Below are positions 1,806 through 23,209 of a DNA stretch of 24,000 nt, piece by piece. The stretch covers positions 170,633 to 194,632 of the forward strand of contig CALWIP010000023.1 of the NCBI GenBank assembly GCA_944380775.1. Direction: 5' to 3'. The position numbers and the translations under genes were made by a program. The DNA is from an uncultured Clostridia bacterium. Its GTDB lineage: Bacteria > Bacillota > Clostridia > Oscillospirales > Acutalibacteraceae. The notes below the pieces were generated by a model. The model had not been told where the DNA came from and searched no databases. It was given only the letters and a program-made list of their open reading frames with translations. Within the stretch, counting starts at the first letter, position 1. Each line of letters starts with the position of its first letter.

Positions 1806-4183
1806 TTCAGTTCCACAACCGTCACGCCGGATTCCCCCTCGCCGAACGTGCCGAGACGGAAGGATTTGACAGACGGATGGCGCCGCAGATGATCCTGGAT
1901 GGCGGCGCGAAGGACGCCGGTCCCTTTCCCGTGGATGACCGTCAGAGACGGCACGTTGGAAAGCACCGCCGAGTCGATAAATTGATCGACCGTCATGATG
2001 GCTTCCTGCGCGGTTTGGCCGCGTACATCCACCTCTGTGTGGATCTCCGCGCGCGCCCCGCCCACATTTTTCGTCACACGGCGGCGCGGCGGTTCCGGCT
2101 GTTTCTGCTTCTCTTCAATCAATTTCAGATTTTCCAGCGGCACGCGCGTCTTGATGACGCCCGCCTGCACCAGGACTTTCCCGCCGTCCTCCGGCGTCTC
2201 CAGCACGGTGGCGCGCTTGTCGATGTCGCGCAGCAGCACCGTGTCCCCCGCCTTCAGCGGGCGCGGCAGCACATAGGGGCCGCTTTCCTTTTTATGCACC
2301 GGGTCGGCGAGGTTTTCCAGGTTGCGCATGCCGGCGCGCAGCTTCGCTTTCTCCTCTGCGGAAAGCGCCTTGTTCTGGCGTCGGCGCAATTCGTCCATTT
2401 CATTGAGCATCGCGTCAATTTGCGCGCGGGTGCGCGCCACCAGCTGGGCGGCCTGCTCCCGGGCGCGGGCAAGTTCCCGCTCGCCCTCCCGTTCCACTTT
2501 CTCACGCGCCGCGCGGGCTTCCTCGTTGGCCGCAGCGGCCTCGCGGCGTTCGCGCGCCGCCGTTTCCCGTTCGCCCTCCAGCTTTTGGCGGCTGGCCTCT
2601 AAGCTCTGCACCACGTCTTCAAAGCGGGTGTTCTCGCTGGAAACCAGCGCCTTTGCGCGCTCCACGACGGCGGGCTCCATGCCCAGGCGGGAACAGATGG
2701 CGAACGCGTTCGAACGGCCCGGCACGCCGATGAGCAGGCGGTAGGTCGGCCGCAGCGTGGCAACATCGAATTCGCAGCAGGCGTTCTCCACGCCCGGCGT
2801 TTGCAACGCATAGGCTTTTAACTCGGCGTAATGCGTCGTCGCCGCAATTTTCGCGCCTTTTTCCCGCAGGGATTCCAAAATTGCCGTGGCGAGCGCGGCG
2901 CCCTCCACCGGGTCTGTCCCTGCGCCGAGTTCGTCGAGCAGCACAAGGCTGTCCGGCCCGGCCTGGCGGAAAATGCGGATGATGTTCGTCATGTGCGCCG
3001 AAAAGGTGGAGAGCGACTGCTCGATGCTCTGTTCGTCGCCGATATCGACCAGGACCCGCCGGAACGCCGCGATCTTGCAGCCCTCTCCCGCGGGGATCAT
3101 CAGGCCGCACAACGCCATCGCCGTAAGCAGGCCAATGGTCTTGAGCGACACCGTTTTGCCGCCGGTGTTCGGCCCGGTGATGACCAACGTGTCAAAGCGC
3201 CCGCCGAGCTCGATGTCGGTGGGAACCACTTTTTTCGGGTCGATGAGCGGGTGGCGCGCCCGTTTGAGCAAAATCTCGCCGGAATCGTTGATTTCCGGAA
3301 GCGTTGCCTTCATCCGGTAGGCGAGCGAGGCTTTGGCAAAGATGAGGTCCAGGCCGACCGCCGCGTGGTAGCTCTGGATGATCCCGCCGGCGAAGCTGCC
3401 CGCTTCCGCCGAAAGCTCCGCCAGGATGCGCTCAATCTCCGCCTGCTCGCGCGCGAGCAGCACGCGGATTTCGTTGTTCGCCTCGACCACGCCCATTGGC
3501 TCGACGAAGACGGTCGCGCCGCTGGAAGACGTGTCGTGCACCAGGCCCGGCACGTCGCCGCGGCATTCCGCCTTGACCGGCACGACATAGCGCCCAGAGC
3601 GCATGGTAACAATCGGGTCCTGCAAATATTTTTGGTAAACCGGCGAGCGGATCATTTTATCCAGCTGCTCGCGCACGCGCGAGGAAGCCGCGCGGATCTT
3701 CCTGCGGATAGAGGCGAGTTCCGGCGAAGCCTGGTCCGACACCTCTTCTTCAGACAATACGACTGTATTAATGCGGTCCTCTAAGTACCGGTTCGGCGCA
3801 AGCTGTTCAAAGCGCGGGTCCAGCACGGTGCGCACGCCCTCGCTCTTCGCGCGCCACTCTGCGATTCCGCGGCACGCGCGCAAGAGCCCTGCGATGCGCA
3901 GCAATTCGGTTAGATTCAAAACGCCGCCCGCTTCCGCGCGGCGCAGCGCGTTGGTCATATTCCGCAGGCCGCCAAACCCGGGCGAGCCAAAACGGGCCAT
4001 CAGCTGGTAAGCGTCGTCGGTCTCGTGCAGGAGACGCACCGCGTCCTCCCGGTTTTCCGCAGGGAGGAGCTCCAACGCCTGCGCCGCGGCTTCCTCGCTG
4101 GAGGCCTGCTCTGCAAGCAGCCGCAGCACCTTGTCGAGCTCAACCGCCCGCAGGTTCCTCGTTTCCTGATTGGTTTGTTCCAT
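1802..4183 (-). CDS. mutS2: Endonuclease MutS2 (MutS-family ATPase with C-terminal Smr domain)
   Basis: 793 aa. Walker A motif ITGPNTGGKTV and the DELGAGTDP motif are present. A long coiled-coil Ala/Glu/Arg region is followed by C-terminal Smr (VDVRGQTAQEA...LTVIHGKGTGVLR). Confidence 0.95.
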   Translation of the reverse strand: MEQTNQETRNLRAVELDKVLRLLAEQASSEEAAAQALELLPAENREDAVRLLHETDDAYQLMARFGSPGFGGLRNMTNALRRAEAGGVLNLTELLRIAGLLRACRGIAEWRAKSEGVRTVLDPRFEQLAPNRYLEDRINTVVLSEEEVSDQASPELASIRRKIRAASSRVREQLDKMIRSPVYQKYLQDPIVTMRSGRYVVPVKAECRGDVPGLVHDTSSSGATVFVEPMGVVEANNEIRVLLAREQAEIERILAELSAEAGSFAGGIIQSYHAAVGLDLIFAKASLAYRMKATLPEINDSGEILLKRARHPLIDPKKVVPTDIELGGRFDTLVITGPNTGGKTVSLKTIGLLTAMALCGLMIPAGEGCKIAAFRRVLVDIGDEQSIEQSLSTFSAHMTNIIRIFRQAGPDSLVLLDELGAGTDPVEGAALATAILESLREKGAKIAATTHYAELKAYALQTPGVENACCEFDVATLRPTYRLLIGVPGRSNAFAICSRLGMEPAVVERAKALVSSENTRFEDVVQSLEASRQKLEGERETAARERREAAAANEEARAAREKVEREGERELARAREQAAQLVARTRAQIDAMLNEMDELRRRQNKALSAEEKAKLRAGMRNLENLADPVHKKESGPYVLPRPLKAGDTVLLRDIDKRATVLETPEDGGKVLVQAGVIKTRVPLENLKLIEEKQKQPEPPRRRVTKNVGGARAEIHTEVDVRGQTAQEAIMTVDQFIDSAVLSNVPSLTVIHGKGTGVLRAAIQDHLRRHPSVKSFRLGTFGEGESGVTVVELK

Positions 4184-4192
4184 ATTGTTCTC

Positions 4193-4963
4193 CTATGTTT
4201 TCCGCCCCGGCGCGGCCGGCGCCGCACAGGCGCGGTAAAAGTCCAGCGTGGCAAAGCCGCGCCCCAGCTGGCTGAGGACGTACTGTTCCGCCGCGTGCCC
4301 CAGCACGCACAAGCCCTCCTCCGGCAGCCGGAACGAAAACAGCTTTTCCAGTTCCGCATAAACGGTGTGCCGCAGGGCGGTGGTCACGCCGCGGTTCATC
4401 CGTACGGCGCGGGCCTCGCCCCTGGTAAAGCAGCTCCCGCAGAGCAGGCAGCCCTGCGAAGGCAAAAAAAACATCTCGTCCGCTTCATAGCAGGCGCAGC
4501 GCGCGCAACAGACGAGGTCCGGCTGGTAGCCGGCCAGCGCCATCATGCGCATTTCCACCACAGGCTTCAGCAGCAGCGGGGAACGCGCGCCCGCGCTGAG
4601 AAAATGGAGCGCATTGAGCATCACGCGCAAAAAGCCGTCTGCGGGCGCTTCCTCCGGGGCCAGCGCGCCCGCCAACTCGCAGAAGTACTGCGCCAGCGCC
4701 AGGCGGCTGATTTCCTCCCGCAGGCCGAAAAAAACCTCGACCGGCTGCGCCTCGTCGACGAGGTAGCGCTCCCGCCCACGGTAGAGCGTGAAGCGGGAAT
4801 AGCACAGGAGCTGGGTAGAGGAAGCCTTCCCGCTGCGCAGGCGCTTGGCCTGCCGCGCAAACGCTCGCACCACCCCGGCGTCCCGTGTCAAGATGCTGAC
4901 CAGGCGGTCATTTTCCCCCACGTTCCACTCCCGAATGACGAGCCCGTCCGTTTTGATCTGCAT
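4193..4963 (-). CDS. recO: DNA repair protein RecO
   Basis: The product begins MQIKTDGLVIREWNVGENDRLVSILTRDAGVVRAF (OB-fold N-terminus). It also has the Cys cluster CARCACYEADEMFFLPSQGCLLCGSC (RecO zinc finger). I place the start at the internal ATG at 4963 rather than the ORF-track start at 4987. Its position after era matches Firmicutes synteny. Confidence 0.85.
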   Translation of the reverse strand: MQIKTDGLVIREWNVGENDRLVSILTRDAGVVRAFARQAKRLRSGKASSTQLLCYSRFTLYRGRERYLVDEAQPVEVFFGLREEISRLALAQYFCELAGALAPEEAPADGFLRVMLNALHFLSAGARSPLLLKPVVEMRMMALAGYQPDLVCCARCACYEADEMFFLPSQGCLLCGSCFTRGEARAVRMNRGVTTALRHTVYAELEKLFSFRLPEEGLCVLGHAAEQYVLSQLGRGFATLDFYRACAAPAAPGRKT

Positions 4964-5075
4964 GCGTGCTCCCCTTCCGTGCGGCACAGCCGCCGCGCGC
5001 CAGCCGCGCGTATTCCAAATAAGCCGCCACGCTTCCGGTGGCGCAAAAGGCCTCCCAGGCCTGCTTCTGGTTCAT
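4908..5075 (-). CDS. YqzL-like small protein (55 aa), not in the ORF track
   Basis: Hand translation from ATG 5075 gives MNQKQAWEAFCATGSVAAYLEYARLARGGCAARKGSTHADQNGRARHSGVERGGK, with the stop at 4908-4910. The N-terminal 25 residues resemble the YqzL family (AW..F..TG.I.AYL.Y), which sits between era and recO in Bacillus. The 3' end overlaps recO by 56 nt in another frame. Confidence 0.45.
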   Translation of the reverse strand: MNQKQAWEAFCATGSVAAYLEYARLARGGCAARKGSTHADQNGRARHSGVERGGK

Positions 5076-5163
5076 CCCGGTCCCGTCCTTTCCGCGCTCA
5101 TGCGTTATTCAGTATTCGCCGCGCGGAAAACGGTATGTCAGGAAATATCAGGTCGAACGGCCG

Positions 5164-6081
5164 TCACTGGAAATCGTTTTCCCCGTAGCCGAGGCTGCGC
5201 AGCACGGCTTCCCGGTTGCGCCAATCCTCCTTGACCTTGACCCAGAGCTGCAAATTAACCTTGCAGCCGAAAAATTTTTCCATATCCTCCCGGGCGTAGG
5301 AGCCAACCCGCTTGAGCATGGCGCCGCCCTTTCCAATGATAATCCCCTTGTGGTTGACGCGCTCACAATAGATGGTCGCGTCGATGTCGGTGACGCCGTC
5401 GCCGCGCTCCTTCATGCGTTCCACGGAAACGGCCAGGCCGTGCGGGACCTCTTTGTCCAACAGGCGCAGCAGCTTTTCGCGCACAATTTCCCCGGCAAGC
5501 ACGCGTTCCGGCTGGTCTGTAAGTGTGTCGCGGTCGAAGAAATGCGGGCCGGACTCCGCCAAAGCCTTGAGCTCTTTTTTCAAATCCTGGAGGCCGTTGC
5601 CGTCCAGCGCCGAAACTGGCACGACCGCCCGGAACGGAAATAATTCCGAATATGCGGCGATCTGCGCGAGCAGCTTCGATTTCTCCTCCAAGAGGTCGAT
5701 CTTATTCACTGCCAAAACAGCGGGCAAGCCCTGGCTCTGGAACCGCGCGATCAATTCGCGGTCCGCGGGGGAGATCTTCTGTCCCGCCTCCACCACGAGC
5801 AGGCAGGCGTCCACGCCGGAGACAGACTCCACCACCGAACGCACCATGTAGGAATCCAGCCGGTCGTGCGGCTTGTGCAGGCCGGGGGTGTCCAAAAAAA
5901 CAAGCTGGGTCTCCTCCTCGGTGAGCACACCCATGATGCGCGTGCGCGTGGTCTGCGGCTTGCGGGAGACGATGGCCACCTTCTGCCCTAAAAGGGCGTT
6001 GAGCAACGAGGACTTGCCCACGTTGGGCCGCCCAACAATGGCGAGAAACGCCGTTTTTTCCTGAAGTTCCTGATTAACCAA
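5164..6081 (-). CDS. era: GTPase Era
   Basis: 305 aa with G1 GRPNVGKSSLLN, G3 DTPG, NKID and a C-terminal KH domain (IYCERVNHKGIIIGKGGAMLK). The start is TTG at 6081, preceded by GGAG 7 nt upstream. Confidence 0.95.
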   Translation of the reverse strand: MVNQELQEKTAFLAIVGRPNVGKSSLLNALLGQKVAIVSRKPQTTRTRIMGVLTEEETQLVFLDTPGLHKPHDRLDSYMVRSVVESVSGVDACLLVVEAGQKISPADRELIARFQSQGLPAVLAVNKIDLLEEKSKLLAQIAAYSELFPFRAVVPVSALDGNGLQDLKKELKALAESGPHFFDRDTLTDQPERVLAGEIVREKLLRLLDKEVPHGLAVSVERMKERGDGVTDIDATIYCERVNHKGIIIGKGGAMLKRVGSYAREDMEKFFGCKVNLQLWVKVKEDWRNREAVLRSLGYGENDFQ

Positions 6082-11311: not shown

Positions 11312-11450
11312 AGGCTTTCCGGAGGGTCCGGCGCTTTACAGTTTTGTAATTTGCTTTTCCCGCACCCCTGCCCGCCGGGCGGGTGGTATGATAAGAACAA
11401 AGAAAACGATTTGTGGCAAACGGCGTTCGCGCCGGGAAAAGGAGGCCGCC

Positions 11451-11939
11451 ATGCAAGCTTCTGTTTTGCGCGCATTCCGCCGCTCGATGGCTGGCGCCAT
11501 CGCTTTTTGCCTGACGGCGGCGCTGTTCTTATCCGTCGGGGTTTTCGGCCTGACGCGCGGCGAGTGGGTGTTCCTCGCAGGCATCGCGGACGGCCTGCTG
11601 CTCCTGCTCCTGGCGTGGTTTGCCGGCCCGGTTTATCAATTCGGCAAGCTCCCCGCGCGCGGGGTCGCGCCGCTGGCCTCGCTGCCCGCCCCGAAAAACC
11701 TGTTCCAATATTGGACGCATTACCGGGCGCTGGACCATGAGCTCGGCCTTCCCAAGAAAAAAGCGGCGGTTTACGCGCCGCTGCTTTTGACAATCCTCGC
11801 CGCCGTCCTGCTGGTTGCTGCGGTGTTCCTCATTGGGAACGCGCTGTTCCCCGCCGGCCCGGCGATGGGCATGGACCCCGGCATGGGGATGGATATGGAC
11901 ATGGGCATGGCCGGAATGGAGGCCGTCGCTATCGGATAG
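11451..11939 (+). CDS. Hypothetical membrane protein with three predicted TM segments and a Met-rich C-terminal tail
   Basis: I chose ATG at 11451 because AAGGAGG lies 6 nt upstream. Hydrophobic segments are AIAFCLTAALFLSVGVFGL, WVFLAGIADGLLLLLLAWFAG and VYAPLLLTILAAVLLVAAVFLIG. The tail reads PAMGMDPGMGMDMDMGMAGMEAVAIG. Confidence 0.6.
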   Translation: MQASVLRAFRRSMAGAIAFCLTAALFLSVGVFGLTRGEWVFLAGIADGLLLLLLAWFAGPVYQFGKLPARGVAPLASLPAPKNLFQYWTHYRALDHELGLPKKKAAVYAPLLLTILAAVLLVAAVFLIGNALFPAGPAMGMDPGMGMDMDMGMAGMEAVAIG

Positions 11940-11945
11940 TCAAAA

Positions 11946-11973
11946 GGGCTGCCCCGCGGGGCGGCCCTTTTTG
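11946..11973 (+). terminator. Rho-independent terminator after the Met-tail membrane protein gene
   Basis: GGGCTGCCC (11946-11954) pairs with GGGCGGCCC (11959-11967) around a CGCG loop. TTTTT follows at 11968-11972. Confidence 0.6.
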
Positions 11974-11976
11974 CGC

Positions 11977-12005
11977 TGGACTTTTCCCCGCCGCCATGAT
12001 ATACT
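11977..12005 (+). promoter_or_regulatory. Promoter driving the structured non-coding region upstream of the RT
   Basis: TGGACT (11977-11982), a 17-nt spacer and TATACT (12000-12005), with TG at 11997-11998 (extended -10, TGaTATACT). The predicted start is near G12012, the first base of the left inverted-repeat arm. Confidence 0.5.
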
Positions 12006-12011
12006 GAACAT

Positions 12012-12204
12012 GCGGACGGGGCGGCAGCGTTTGCCTGCTTTCCGCAGGGGGCCGGCGAGTCGCGCGGCCTATTTTTGTTTGAGCGGCGCAAAGCTCCGCT
12101 TTGCCGGGGAACGCGGTCCTCGACGTGTTCACGACATCTTTCCAGATGTAACCACACGCCTGCGGCCGCCTTCCCGTAGAATTTTTTGTGCCGCCCCGCG
12201 CCGC
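12012..12204 (+). ncRNA. Candidate retron msr-msd non-coding RNA
   Basis: The left arm GCGGACGGGGCGGCA (12012-12026) is complementary to the right arm TGCCGCCCCGCGCCGC (12189-12204), giving 10+4 bp and enclosing 162 nt. G12027 in an AGC context follows the left arm. Local hairpins lie at 12034-12048, 12050-12069 and 12088-12104. A long imperfect hairpin spans 12107-12175. The region sits directly upstream of, and co-oriented with, a retron-type RT. Confidence 0.5.
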
Positions 12205-12283
12205 TTTCTTTATTTAAAACTCTTTTTATAAAAAGTCTCCAGGAAATCAAAAGGGATGCGCATCTGCGCAAGGAGGCAGGGGA

Positions 12284-13309
12284 ATGTCGCCCGAATTGAT
12301 GGCGTTCTGCGCCTATTGCTATCCCGGCCGGGATGAAGAAGGCCTGCGGCGTGCGTATGGCCAAATGATCCGCTTCACCCGCAAGCGGCTACAGACCGGT
12401 TTTTACACCGCGCTGCGCCTGCCAAAGCCCGGCGGCGGCGAACGCGTGGTCTTGGCGCCCAGCCCGGGCCTCAAGCGGGCGCAGGCGGCCGCGGCTTTGC
12501 TGCTCGCGGCGGAACCGGTCTCGCCCTACGCATGCGCCTACCGCAAGGGCGTTTCGCTGCGGGACAACGCCGCGCCGCACACCGGCGCGCCGCTGCTGCT
12601 CAAAACGGACCTGCGGGATTTCTTCGGCAGCGTCCGCTTCCCGGCGGTTTACCGCGCGTTTGACGGCGCGCTGCACCGCGCGCCGCCGCCGTTTCTGGCG
12701 CGCCGCCCGGAGGGGGAACCGTATCCGCTCAGCTTTTTCCTCGCGCGGCTTTGTACCTGCGAAGGCTCCCTCCCGCAGGGTTCCCCTGCCAGCCCCGTGC
12801 TCTCGAACCTGGCGTTTGCCGCCTGCGACCGCCGCATTGCCGCGTACTGCGGGGAACGGGGCATTTCCTACACCCGCTACAGCGACGACCTCACGTTCTC
12901 CGGCAAATTCTCCGCAGAGGCGCTGCTGCGCTTTCTGGACCGCCTGCTCGAGGACTCCGGTTTTTCGCGCCACCCGGGCAAGACGGCCGCCGCCGGCCCC
13001 GGCGCGCGCCACCGGGTAACCGGGCTTTCCGTCTCCGACCGGGTGCTCGCCCCGCGTGAATTCCGGCGTGCGATCCGCCAAGAATTTTATTATATCCAAA
13101 AATTCGGCCTTGCGCCGCATCTGGCCCGCCGGGGCGGGCCGGATTCCCCCGAAGCGCAAGAGGCCGCGCTGGCCGCGCTGCTTGGGCGCGTCTCGTTCGT
13201 CCTGCAAATGGACCCGCAGAACCGCGACTTCCTGCGCTACCGCGCGCTCTGCCTCGGCCCGCTGCGGGACGCCGTCGCCCGCGAATACCGGTACAGGAGG
13301 TTTCTATGA
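12284..13309 (+). CDS. Retron-type reverse transcriptase (RNA-directed DNA polymerase)
   Basis: AGGAGG lies 7 nt upstream of the ATG. Motifs are NAAPH (aa 95-99), LLLKTDLRDFFGSV (motif A), LPQGSPASPVLSNL, YTRYSDDLTFS (YxDD) and HRVTGLSV (VTG). At 341 aa it has no maturase or endonuclease domain. Confidence 0.9.
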   Translation: MSPELMAFCAYCYPGRDEEGLRRAYGQMIRFTRKRLQTGFYTALRLPKPGGGERVVLAPSPGLKRAQAAAALLLAAEPVSPYACAYRKGVSLRDNAAPHTGAPLLLKTDLRDFFGSVRFPAVYRAFDGALHRAPPPFLARRPEGEPYPLSFFLARLCTCEGSLPQGSPASPVLSNLAFAACDRRIAAYCGERGISYTRYSDDLTFSGKFSAEALLRFLDRLLEDSGFSRHPGKTAAAGPGARHRVTGLSVSDRVLAPREFRRAIRQEFYYIQKFGLAPHLARRGGPDSPEAQEAALAALLGRVSFVLQMDPQNRDFLRYRALCLGPLRDAVAREYRYRRFL

Positions 13310-14136
13310 ACATCGGCTGCCATTTGTCCATCGCCAAAGGCTACCGCGCAATGGGCGATCAGGCGCTTGCCCTCGGCGCCAACACGTTTCAATTTTTCAC
13401 CCGCAGCCCGCGCGGCGGCAAAAGCAAAGCGGCGGACCCCGCGGACCTGGCCGCGCTGCGCGCGCTACTGGCAGAGCGCCGGTTTGCCCCCCTGGTTGCG
13501 CACGCGCCGTATACGCTCAACCCCTGCGCAAAGGACGAGGGCCTGCGGGACTTTGCGCTGCGCGTGATGCGGGAAGACCTCGCGCTGCTCGCGCAGCTAC
13601 CGGGGAATTTTTATAACTTCCACCCCGGCTGCCATGTCGGCCAAGGCGTCGAAACCGGCGTCGCGTGGATTGCCGCGCTGCTCAACCAGGTGCTGCCTGC
13701 GGCGGAGGGCTGCGGCGTCCTGCTCGAAACGATGTCCGGCAAGGGCAGCGAGATCGGCGGGCGCTTTGAGGAATTGCGCGAGATCATCAGCCGCGTGGAG
13801 GGAAACGGCGCGCTCGGCGTCTGCCTGGACACCTGCCATGTGTATTCCGCGGGGTACGACCTCGTGAACGACTTGGACGGCGTTTTGACGGAATTTGACC
13901 GCGTGATCGGCCTGCAACGCTTAAAGGCGGTGCATTTGAACGACAGCCTGACGCCGTTCGCCAGCCGAAAGGACCGGCACGCAAAGATTGGCGAGGGTTC
14001 GCTCGGTTTGGATGCGATTTCGCGGATCCTTTTCCACCCGGCGCTGCGGGACCTCCCTTTTGTGCTGGAGACGCCGAATGAATTGGACGGTTACCGGGAA
14101 GAAATCCGCCTGCTGCGCGGCCTTGCGCCCGCATAA
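13306..14136 (+). CDS. nfo: Endonuclease IV (deoxyribonuclease IV, AP endonuclease family 2)
   Basis: 276 aa and collinear with E. coli Nfo. All metal-ligand blocks are present: AHAPYTLN, NFHPGCH, LLETMSGKG, LDTCHVYSAGYD, HLNDS, RKDRHAKIGEG and FVLETP. The ATG overlaps the RT stop (ATGA at 13306-13309), and the Shine-Dalgarno AGGAGG lies at 13295-13300. Confidence 0.95.
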   Translation: MNIGCHLSIAKGYRAMGDQALALGANTFQFFTRSPRGGKSKAADPADLAALRALLAERRFAPLVAHAPYTLNPCAKDEGLRDFALRVMREDLALLAQLPGNFYNFHPGCHVGQGVETGVAWIAALLNQVLPAAEGCGVLLETMSGKGSEIGGRFEELREIISRVEGNGALGVCLDTCHVYSAGYDLVNDLDGVLTEFDRVIGLQRLKAVHLNDSLTPFASRKDRHAKIGEGSLGLDAISRILFHPALRDLPFVLETPNELDGYREEIRLLRGLAPA

Positions 14137-22858: not shown

Positions 22859-23205
22859 GCGAGCAGGCCAGACGGCTGCGGGCAGCGCCCGAAAGAGCCT
22901 GCCTGAGGAAAGTCCGAGCTCCACAGGGCAAGAATAACGGCTAACGGCCGCCGGGGGCGACCCTAGGGAAAGTGCAACAGAGAGATACCGCCGCCCAGTG
23001 CGGTAAGGGTGGAAAGGCGAGGTAAGAGCTCACCAGCGCGCGGGAGACCGCGCGGCTCTGCAAACCCTATTCGGAGCAACACCGTGGAGGGACACATGCG
23101 CCGGCCCGGCGCGTCCCGAGGAGGTGGCACTGAGCCGCGACGGCAACGTCCGGCCAAGATAGATGGCCGTCCAAGACAGAACTCGGCTTACAGGCCTGGT
23201 CGCAC
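22859..23205 (+). ncRNA. rnpB: RNase P RNA, bacterial type A
   Basis: Universally conserved blocks are present: GAGGAAAGTCCGAGCTCCACAGGGCA, GGGAAAGTGCAACAGAGAG, GGTAAGAGCTCACCAG and ACAGAACTCGGCTTACAGG. The ends GCGAGCAGGCC (22859-22869) and GGCCTGGTCGC (23193-23203) pair as helix P1. Confidence 0.9.
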
Positions 23206-23209
23206 TAAA

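Follow-up and report, generated by a model that had tools for sequence, protein, structure and literature searches.

We describe a very probable stand-alone retron of the Ec107-like type (reverse transcriptase (RT) clade 2) in a 24,000-nt stretch of DNA from an uncultured Clostridia bacterium of the Acutalibacteraceae (assembly GCA_944380775.1, contig CALWIP010000023.1, positions 170,633-194,632 of the forward strand), referred to below as the window. According to our reading, to which we give a probability of about 0.88 on comparative sequence evidence, positions 11977-12204 comprise a promoter and an msr-msd RNA gene, and the open reading frame (ORF) at 12284-13309 encodes the cognate RT. 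A preliminary description of this DNA, made from the raw sequence without tools, had already interpreted the region as a retron template RNA. This interpretation is supported: the downstream ORF is a retron RT, the RNA is conserved upstream of homologous RTs, and it is homologous to the Ec107 msr-msd. The elements of the unit are listed below together with the type of evidence, where MFE stands for minimum free energy and msDNA for multicopy single-stranded DNA.

11977-12005 (+), promoter: -35 box TGGACT at 11977-11982, 17-nt spacer, and TATACT at 12000-12005 preceded by TGa (extended -10)
12012-12026 (+), left arm of the terminal stem (a2), 5' end of the msr (fold, inverted repeat, covariation)
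12027 (+), predicted branching guanosine, directly after the left arm in an A-G-C context
12034-12048 (+), msr hairpin 1, CCTGC / GCAGG (MFE fold, covariation)
12050-12069 (+), msr hairpin 2, with the family-invariant core GCGAGUCGC at 12055-12063 (MFE fold, covariation, invariance)
12088-12104 (+), variable hairpin region between msr and msd, GCAAAGC / GCTTTGC or an alternative pairing
12107-12175 (+), long msd hairpin, the predicted template for the msDNA stem-loop (MFE fold, covariation)
12176-12188 (+), U-rich single-stranded tract ending in G12188 (invariant G before the right arm, preceding positions mostly U)
12189-12204 (+), right arm of the terminal stem (a1) (fold, inverted repeat, covariation)
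12205-12283 (+), 79-nt spacer between the RNA and the RT start, with the ribosome-binding site (RBS) AAGGAGG at 12271-12277, outside the conserved RNA
12284-13309 (+), retron RT of 341 aa, with NAAPH (region X), YSDD (catalytic) and VTG (region Y)

The two ends of the RNA form a perfect 10-nt inverted repeat (12017-12026 with 12189-12198, 162 nt apart), which is extended by four base pairs that can be read directly from the sequence, GCGG at 12012-12015 with CCGC at 12201-12204. The terminal stem of 10 plus 4 bp enclosing 162 nt had been proposed with these coordinates in the preliminary description, and they are borne out by the sequence, an inverted-repeat search and the fold. The MFE structure of 12012-12204 has a free energy of -94.6 kcal/mol (z = -3.27), and one of 200 shuffled sequences was as stable. 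It includes the terminal stem, both short hairpins at 12034-12048 and 12050-12069 and the long one at 12107-12175, and thus reproduces all previously claimed helices except the third short hairpin. The latter (12088-12104) is replaced by an alternative pairing in the MFE fold, and falls into a variable, weakly conserved and poorly alignable region.

The protein encoded downstream of the RNA is matched by dozens of retron RT models from PADLOC, among which RT_Ec107-like is the best (4.8e-78, 260.6 bits). It also has a match to the Pfam family RVT_1, and retron RT models dominate both its PADLOC and NCBIfam hits. In an alignment of 14 proteins, namely the window RT and its 13 best homologues, residues H99, Y199, D201, D202 and G247 are invariant, and A96, S200 and V245 are nearly so. 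The closest solved structure is that of the retron Ec86 RT (7v9u, E 7e-28). The best relative outside the 90% cluster of the RT, which represents its own species, is 52% identical to it, so that the surroundings of the window RT are sparsely sampled in this family. The window RT also carries an insertion of roughly 14 residues at about residues 128-150 (12665-12733), located between conserved motifs (HRAPPPFLARRPEGEP... / HRAPPPFLARRPEGEPYP…), which is shared only with the four or five closest relatives; Ec107 and the more distant members of the family lack it.

Related loci were collected by a scan with one genome per species, which yielded 80 loci (81 including the window). The closest of them belong to Anaeromassilibacillus, Caproiciproducens, Massiliimalia, Anaerovoracaceae and other Clostridia, and the remaining ones are mostly from AT-rich Bacilli and metagenome-assembled genomes (MAGs) of "Tenericutes"; many come from gut or rumen samples. 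For the 14 closest loci, 420 nt of upstream sequence were inspected, in which a homologous RNA is visible by eye. It begins with a variable 13-nt arm and A-G-C, followed by two hairpins, the second of which has the constant core GGCGAGTCGCC. After a variable stretch comes a long hairpin with conserved CCTCGCCGTGT...ACACGGCTGCG, and the RNA closes with a T-rich run up to TGT and the complement of the first arm.

Conservation of the secondary structure was assessed on an alignment of 15 sequences (A4), built with MAFFT and trimmed to 13-nt arms in register. It superseded an earlier MAFFT alignment with ragged ends, in which several left arms were out of register. Standard base pairs occupy 89.2% of the paired cells in A4, compared with 33-47% when the 3' partners are slid by one to three columns. 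Compensatory changes were detected in 40 of the 59 pairs, and none of the 500 shuffled alignments reached any of the observed measures. These changes are found in the terminal stem (11 of 13 pairs), msr hairpin 1 (5 of 6, with 97.5% of cells paired), msr hairpin 2 (7 of 10), and both the lower part (9 of 19) and the tip (4 of 6) of the long msd hairpin; the covariation for which the preliminary description had suggested looking in the terminal stem and the long hairpin is therefore present in both. The compensatory changes in relatives indicate that the RNA structure is maintained beyond chance. When RNAalifold was applied to 18 sequences, the msd hairpin was lost, as three distant sequences were misaligned, and it was recovered with the 15-sequence set.

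Using A4, we built a covariance model, R1, which includes Clostridia-type sequences only and no sequence from E. coli. The model was used in place of a regular-expression and stem search for the arms, which performed well in GC-rich relatives and was noisy in AT-rich Bacilli. R1 finds exactly one copy of the RNA in the window (12014-12201, 117.7 bits), and the full-length RNA in 22 further loci outside its training set. Each match that is paired with the locus-defining RT is located on the same strand, about 140-300 nt upstream of it. Overall, the RNA is present directly upstream of the RT and on the same strand in 37 of the 80 related loci, with both Clostridia and Bacilli among the genomes, as well as in E. 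coli Ec107. In the nearest other species (L090), whose RT is 52% identical to that of the window, the R1 match scores 115.7 bits and differs from the window RNA by 16 compensatory pairs.

Three short segments are invariant in all 34 RNAs of a larger, R1-guided alignment that includes Ec107 (A8): the A-G that follows the left arm, the G-A-G-U-C in hairpin 2 (12057-12061 in the window), and the G-U at the junction between the template and the right arm. The C that follows the A-G is found in 31 of the 34. Thus G12027, to which the preliminary description had drawn attention as the first residue after the left arm in an A-G-C context, aligns with a guanosine that never varies in this set. Among the loci analyzed, one Eubacterium sp. 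MAG (L049) possesses two tandem RNA-RT units (1011-1181 with 1195-2169, and 3630-3768 with 3776-5353), one of which lies about 2.6 kb upstream of the other, with two small ORFs between them. The second RT in this MAG has 525 aa and may carry a C-terminal extension.

The boundaries of the RNA can be compared with the variation within the species. The window and seven further copies from the same species (L083-L089) are 99.5-99.8% identical overall, and have no differences in the 265 nt that cover the promoter and the RNA (11940-12204). In the adjacent spacer (12205-12283), 5-6 differences were found in L083-L086, one in each of L088 and L089, and none in L087, the variable positions being 12208, 12209, 12224, 12242, 12254 and 12265. 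The same-species variation begins just past the right arm, at 12208, and so marks the 3' edge of the functional RNA. Immediately ahead of its RBS, the spacer also has a small palindrome, TGCGCA..TGCGCA (12257-12270).

At the 5' side, the proposed promoter TGGACT-17-TGaTATACT is present as previously described, and is the sole sigma-70-like site in the region 11700-12500, for which shuffled sequences give a chance expectation of 0.1. The extended -10 element (TGnTAnnnT) is found in 14 of the 15 closest homologous loci, starting 13-19 nt upstream of the 13-nt left-arm register. Transcription is predicted to start near G12012.

For a comparison with a known system, we located retron-Eco5 (Ec107) between slmA and pyrE of E. 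coli by matching the K-12 slmA-pyrE junction against complete genomes and selecting a genome whose junction is interrupted by the gene of a "reverse transcriptase family protein". Its RT is 38% identical to the window RT over 285 aa (E 1e-59), and by this identity and the PADLOC score the window RT groups with Ec107. The Ec107 msr-msd, which lies just upstream of its RT, is a full-length match to R1 (56.4 bits, E 7e-14). It shares AAUAGCGUUU at the branch site and has an identical GGCGAGUCGC core in hairpin 2. The order of elements is also the same (terminal stem, A-G branch site, two msr hairpins, long msd hairpin, template-start G-U), and the Ec107 RNA folds into the architecture of the window RNA. 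Like the window retron, Ec107 has no accessory gene, is located between housekeeping genes and has no mobile element nearby (PMC6868368). However, the two elements differ in several respects. The catalytic box is YSDD in the window RT and YCDD in Ec107 (PMC6868368), the msd hairpin is 69 nt in the former and about 90 nt in the latter, the extra variable hairpin between msr and msd is absent in Ec107, and the hosts are a GC-rich, spore-former-type member of Bacillota and a γ-proteobacterium, respectively.

The lineage to which both elements appear to belong has been described before. Mestre et al. 2020 (PMC7736814) describe within clade 2 a stand-alone msr-msd-RT branch that includes Ec107, place it next to RTs linked to phosphoribosyltransferases (PRTases), and leave the function of such "orphan retrons" open. 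In the SPIRE survey of 2026 (10.64898/2026.05.14.725207), the clade2_Ec107like lineage is abundant and without accessory modules, with 178 of 192 members in Bacillota and 91% host-associated, and Ec107_like is listed first among the most frequently detected msr/msd covariance models. The window family and clade2_Ec107like are alike in the RT model, the Clostridia and Bacilli hosts, the Ec107-type msr-msd and the lack of a recurrent accessory module, with no difference of substance between them; the locus itself is not named in the available parts of these two sources. A published retron census contained nothing on the Ec107-like lineage. Since the lineage is already described, the locus adds a member to a known family and does not represent a novel type of element.

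Several observations weigh against the assignment proposed here. Searches against Rfam at both gathering and permissive thresholds matched no retron family, returning only terminator look-alikes and noise, so that the assignment of the RNA rests on R1 and the match to Ec107. The third msr hairpin is weakly supported by the comparison, with about 71% of cells paired across relatives. The 34-sequence alignment, with 90.4% of cells paired and compensatory changes in 54 of 59 pairs (12 of 13 in the terminal stem, 17 of 19 in the lower part and 5 of 6 in the tip of the long hairpin), was fitted to the model structure and leans towards it, and hence A4 is the independent test. The RT_III-A model fits the window RT nearly as well as RT_Ec107-like (3.7e-77, 257.7 bits versus 260.6 bits). 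Finally, the absence of an effector leaves the output of the system without a biological explanation.

Type III-A retrons combine an RT with a PRTase-like protein and, in some cases, a DNA-binding protein of the winged-helix type. Although their RT models score almost as well on the window RT, no PRTase-like or winged-helix gene adjoins the RT here or in any relative among the neighbours of the 81 loci, and the flanking genes in the window encode a small membrane protein and Nfo. A single phosphoribosyltransferase is encoded in the window, namely a housekeeping nicotinate PRTase at a distance of about 8 kb, which has no PADLOC match. The locus was therefore not assigned to type III-A, as an adjacent PRTase-like gene is lacking. 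Retron-Eco1 (Ec86; 7v9u, 7v9x, 8qbk) shows clear RT homology to the window (E 7e-28) and the same general msr-msd logic, but it is a type II-A3 retron with an NDT-like effector, and its ncRNA is unrelated in sequence to the window RNA.

Retron biochemistry, including priming by the 2'-OH of the branching G and the initiation point, is summarized in PMC7736814. Following this scheme, we infer the transcription start, priming at G12027, the extent of the cDNA and the recognition of hairpin 2 by the RT. A transcript starting near 12012 would fold so that its 5' end (12012-12026) pairs with 12189-12204, and the paired ends would bring G12027 next to G12188. The RT, translated from the same transcript, would dock on the msr hairpins; the likeliest contact is the hairpin with the invariant GCGAGUCGC (12050-12069), which is probably the RT recognition element. 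Judging by the alignment and by what is generally known of retrons, the 2'-OH of G12027 would be the primer. Copying would proceed leftwards from G12188, the predicted first templated base, through 12107-12175, giving an msDNA that starts with 5'-CAAAAAATTC..., and the RT would stop in or near the variable region, at about 12080-12105. The expected product is a branched RNA-DNA molecule with a hairpin msDNA of about 90 nt.

The length of this product was calibrated on Ec107, whose msDNA is 107 nt long. Counted from the base before the right arm, these 107 nt correspond to an 8-nt tail, the hairpin of about 90 nt and about 9 nt beyond it. The same count for the window gives 13 + 69 + about 9, or about 90 nt, which would place the end of the msDNA near 12098 (plausible range 82-110 nt). 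The shorter msd hairpin of the window thus leads to a shorter predicted msDNA than in Ec107. The earlier estimate of 80-90 nt is reasonable in view of this predicted value. The predicted cDNA copy folds at -20.4 kcal/mol (z = -3.5).

The window represents the core chromosome, containing mutS2, recO, era, phoH, yqfD, yabP, the retron, nfo, ptsI, pfkB, eda and pncB. Two further features delimit the retron unit on its 5' side and adjoin it on its 3' side.

11942-11971 (+), intrinsic terminator at the end of the preceding membrane-protein gene: AAAAGGGCTGCCCCG/CGGGGCGGCCCTTTT and then a T run, with 15-nt arms that are 93% complementary
13306-14136 (+), nfo, encoding deoxyribonuclease IV (TIGR00587, 6.7e-78)

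The terminator marks the 5' limit of the retron unit, and the promoter comes immediately after it. Its right arm at 11955-11965 (CGCGGGGCGGC) comprises 11 nt that are perfectly complementary to the retron right arm (12190-12200), and thus repeats the core of the left arm (CGGGGCGGC, 12017-12025). This repeat could be due to chance in GC-rich DNA, or could be a trace of the insertion of the element. The E. coli Ec107 likewise replaced an intergenic palindrome. The upstream gene itself (11388-11939, forward strand; gene callers place its start at about 11451) encodes a small protein that is predicted to reside in the membrane. Its C-terminal tail is repetitive and rich in Gly, Met and Asp (…GMDPGMGMDMDMGMAGME…), and no family match was obtained for the protein. 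A gene of similar size (171 aa) also precedes the retron in L090. We considered this protein as a type IV-like effector with two transmembrane segments (2TM) and rejected it, since it has no PADLOC hit, is not conserved beside other RTs and is separated from the retron by the terminator.

Downstream of the RNA, the RT and nfo genes share ATGA (13306-13309) as overlapping stop and start codons, the RBS AGGAGG of nfo is inside the 3' end of the RT gene, and ptsI follows 17 nt past nfo. Because the upstream gene ends in a terminator, transcription from the retron promoter may extend into nfo and perhaps into ptsI. The same ATGA overlap is present in L090 (1990-1993) and L091 (1688-1691), where Nfo is 65% and the RT 52% identical to the window proteins. 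However, nfo adjoins the RT only in the species of the window and in these two loci, being absent from this position in all other relatives. These observations do not show a functional link of the retron to nfo, which we rejected as a retron effector or general partner; nfo is apparently a co-transcribed neighbour in the window lineage and not a conserved retron component.

Neighbour clustering in the 81 loci revealed nothing in common except the RT. The neighbours in relatives are varied and apparently unrelated, and include a GH25-type lysozyme, ABC and OPT transporters, a P-type ATPase, a sigma factor and MetRS. PADLOC found no retron effector in the window, and the core-chromosome genes around the retron gave no meaningful hit. 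A tripartite toxin-antitoxin or abortive-infection system was also considered and set aside, as no effector was found in cis. The retron lies between the same host genes in each of three lineages (L001, L007, L008 and L025; L010, L011 and L013; the window and L090). Identities within these lineages have fallen to 51-68% for the RTs and to 65-88% for the flanking proteins. The same flanks despite this RT divergence suggest long vertical inheritance at fixed sites rather than mobility, which is in line with the remark of Mestre et al. 2020 (PMC7736814) that some retrons may be domesticated.

Two other explanations of the RNA and its RT have to be weighed against a working retron. One is that they are a decaying relic that has lost msDNA synthesis together with its effector. 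The lack of an accessory gene in the window and its relatives would fit such a decay, as would the suggestion in Mestre et al. 2020 that the Ec107 branch lost a PRTase-like partner (PMC7736814). Yet the RT ORF is intact, with YSDD, NAxxH and VTG, the RNA is invariant in the eight same-species copies while the adjacent spacer varies, and compensatory changes keep the structure across species whose RTs are only 35-52% identical. In addition, E. coli Ec107, which is equally effector-less, makes msDNA (PMC6868368). Given the intact motifs, the within-species invariance and the maintained covariation, we regard a relic as very improbable. Even smaller is the chance that the RNA is not a template but a cis-regulatory leader, similar to an attenuator or a riboswitch, of an RT-nfo-ptsI operon. 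Its position at the 5' end of an apparent operon in which nfo overlaps the RT stop codon is what such a leader would have, and a terminator-like hairpin with a U run was scored at 12160-12179. However, a U run with G-U ahead of the right arm characterizes the template start throughout the family, and the RNA is homologous to the known msr-msd of Ec107. The RNA also travels with the RT, and not with nfo, across dozens of unrelated contexts; among the loci collected there is no case of the RNA upstream of nfo or ptsI without an RT. Association with the RT through these contexts and the homology to a known msr-msd thus argue for a template.

If the locus is a functional retron, the role of its msDNA can be considered separately. 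Our leading guess, which we hold tentatively, is that the msDNA takes part in phage sensing together with a toxic effector acting in trans from another place in the genome. To our knowledge, the RT-msDNA complex has an effector as its partner in every characterized retron defence system, which speaks in favour of this possibility. Trans-acting effectors were also raised for orphan retrons in Mestre et al. 2020, but according to the same authors most orphan-retron genomes are without homologues of known retron effectors (PMC7736814). Furthermore, the locus is in the core chromosome and not in a defence island, and the same chromosomal site is kept across species, which is unusual for defence genes. 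A serious alternative is a non-defence role in a vertically inherited, domesticated element. In its specific form, which we consider unlikely, though less so than a relic, the msDNA of a domesticated effector-less retron would have a housekeeping or stress function, for example in DNA repair or starvation, or else nfo and other genes would depend on the retron promoter. A link to DNA repair or starvation was reportedly once suggested for Ec107.

As an annotation, the present call is routine and adds one more Ec107-like retron; it also confirms that an msr-msd can be identified correctly by reading the raw sequence without tools. Effector-less retrons are an acknowledged loose end, and Mestre et al. 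2020 (PMC7736814) ask whether they have trans effectors or do something else. For this question the locus offers a compact unit of about 1.3 kb with a defined RNA and mutable invariant positions (G12027, the GAGUC loop and G12188), as well as signs of a long vertical descent and, in the window lineage, a connection to nfo through the operon. Stand-alone retrons that are compact and have a defined template could, in addition, serve as tools for the production of RT-DNA.

Elsewhere in the window, at 22860-23206 on the forward strand, we identified the bacterial RNase P RNA of class A (242.9 bits, E 3e-78).

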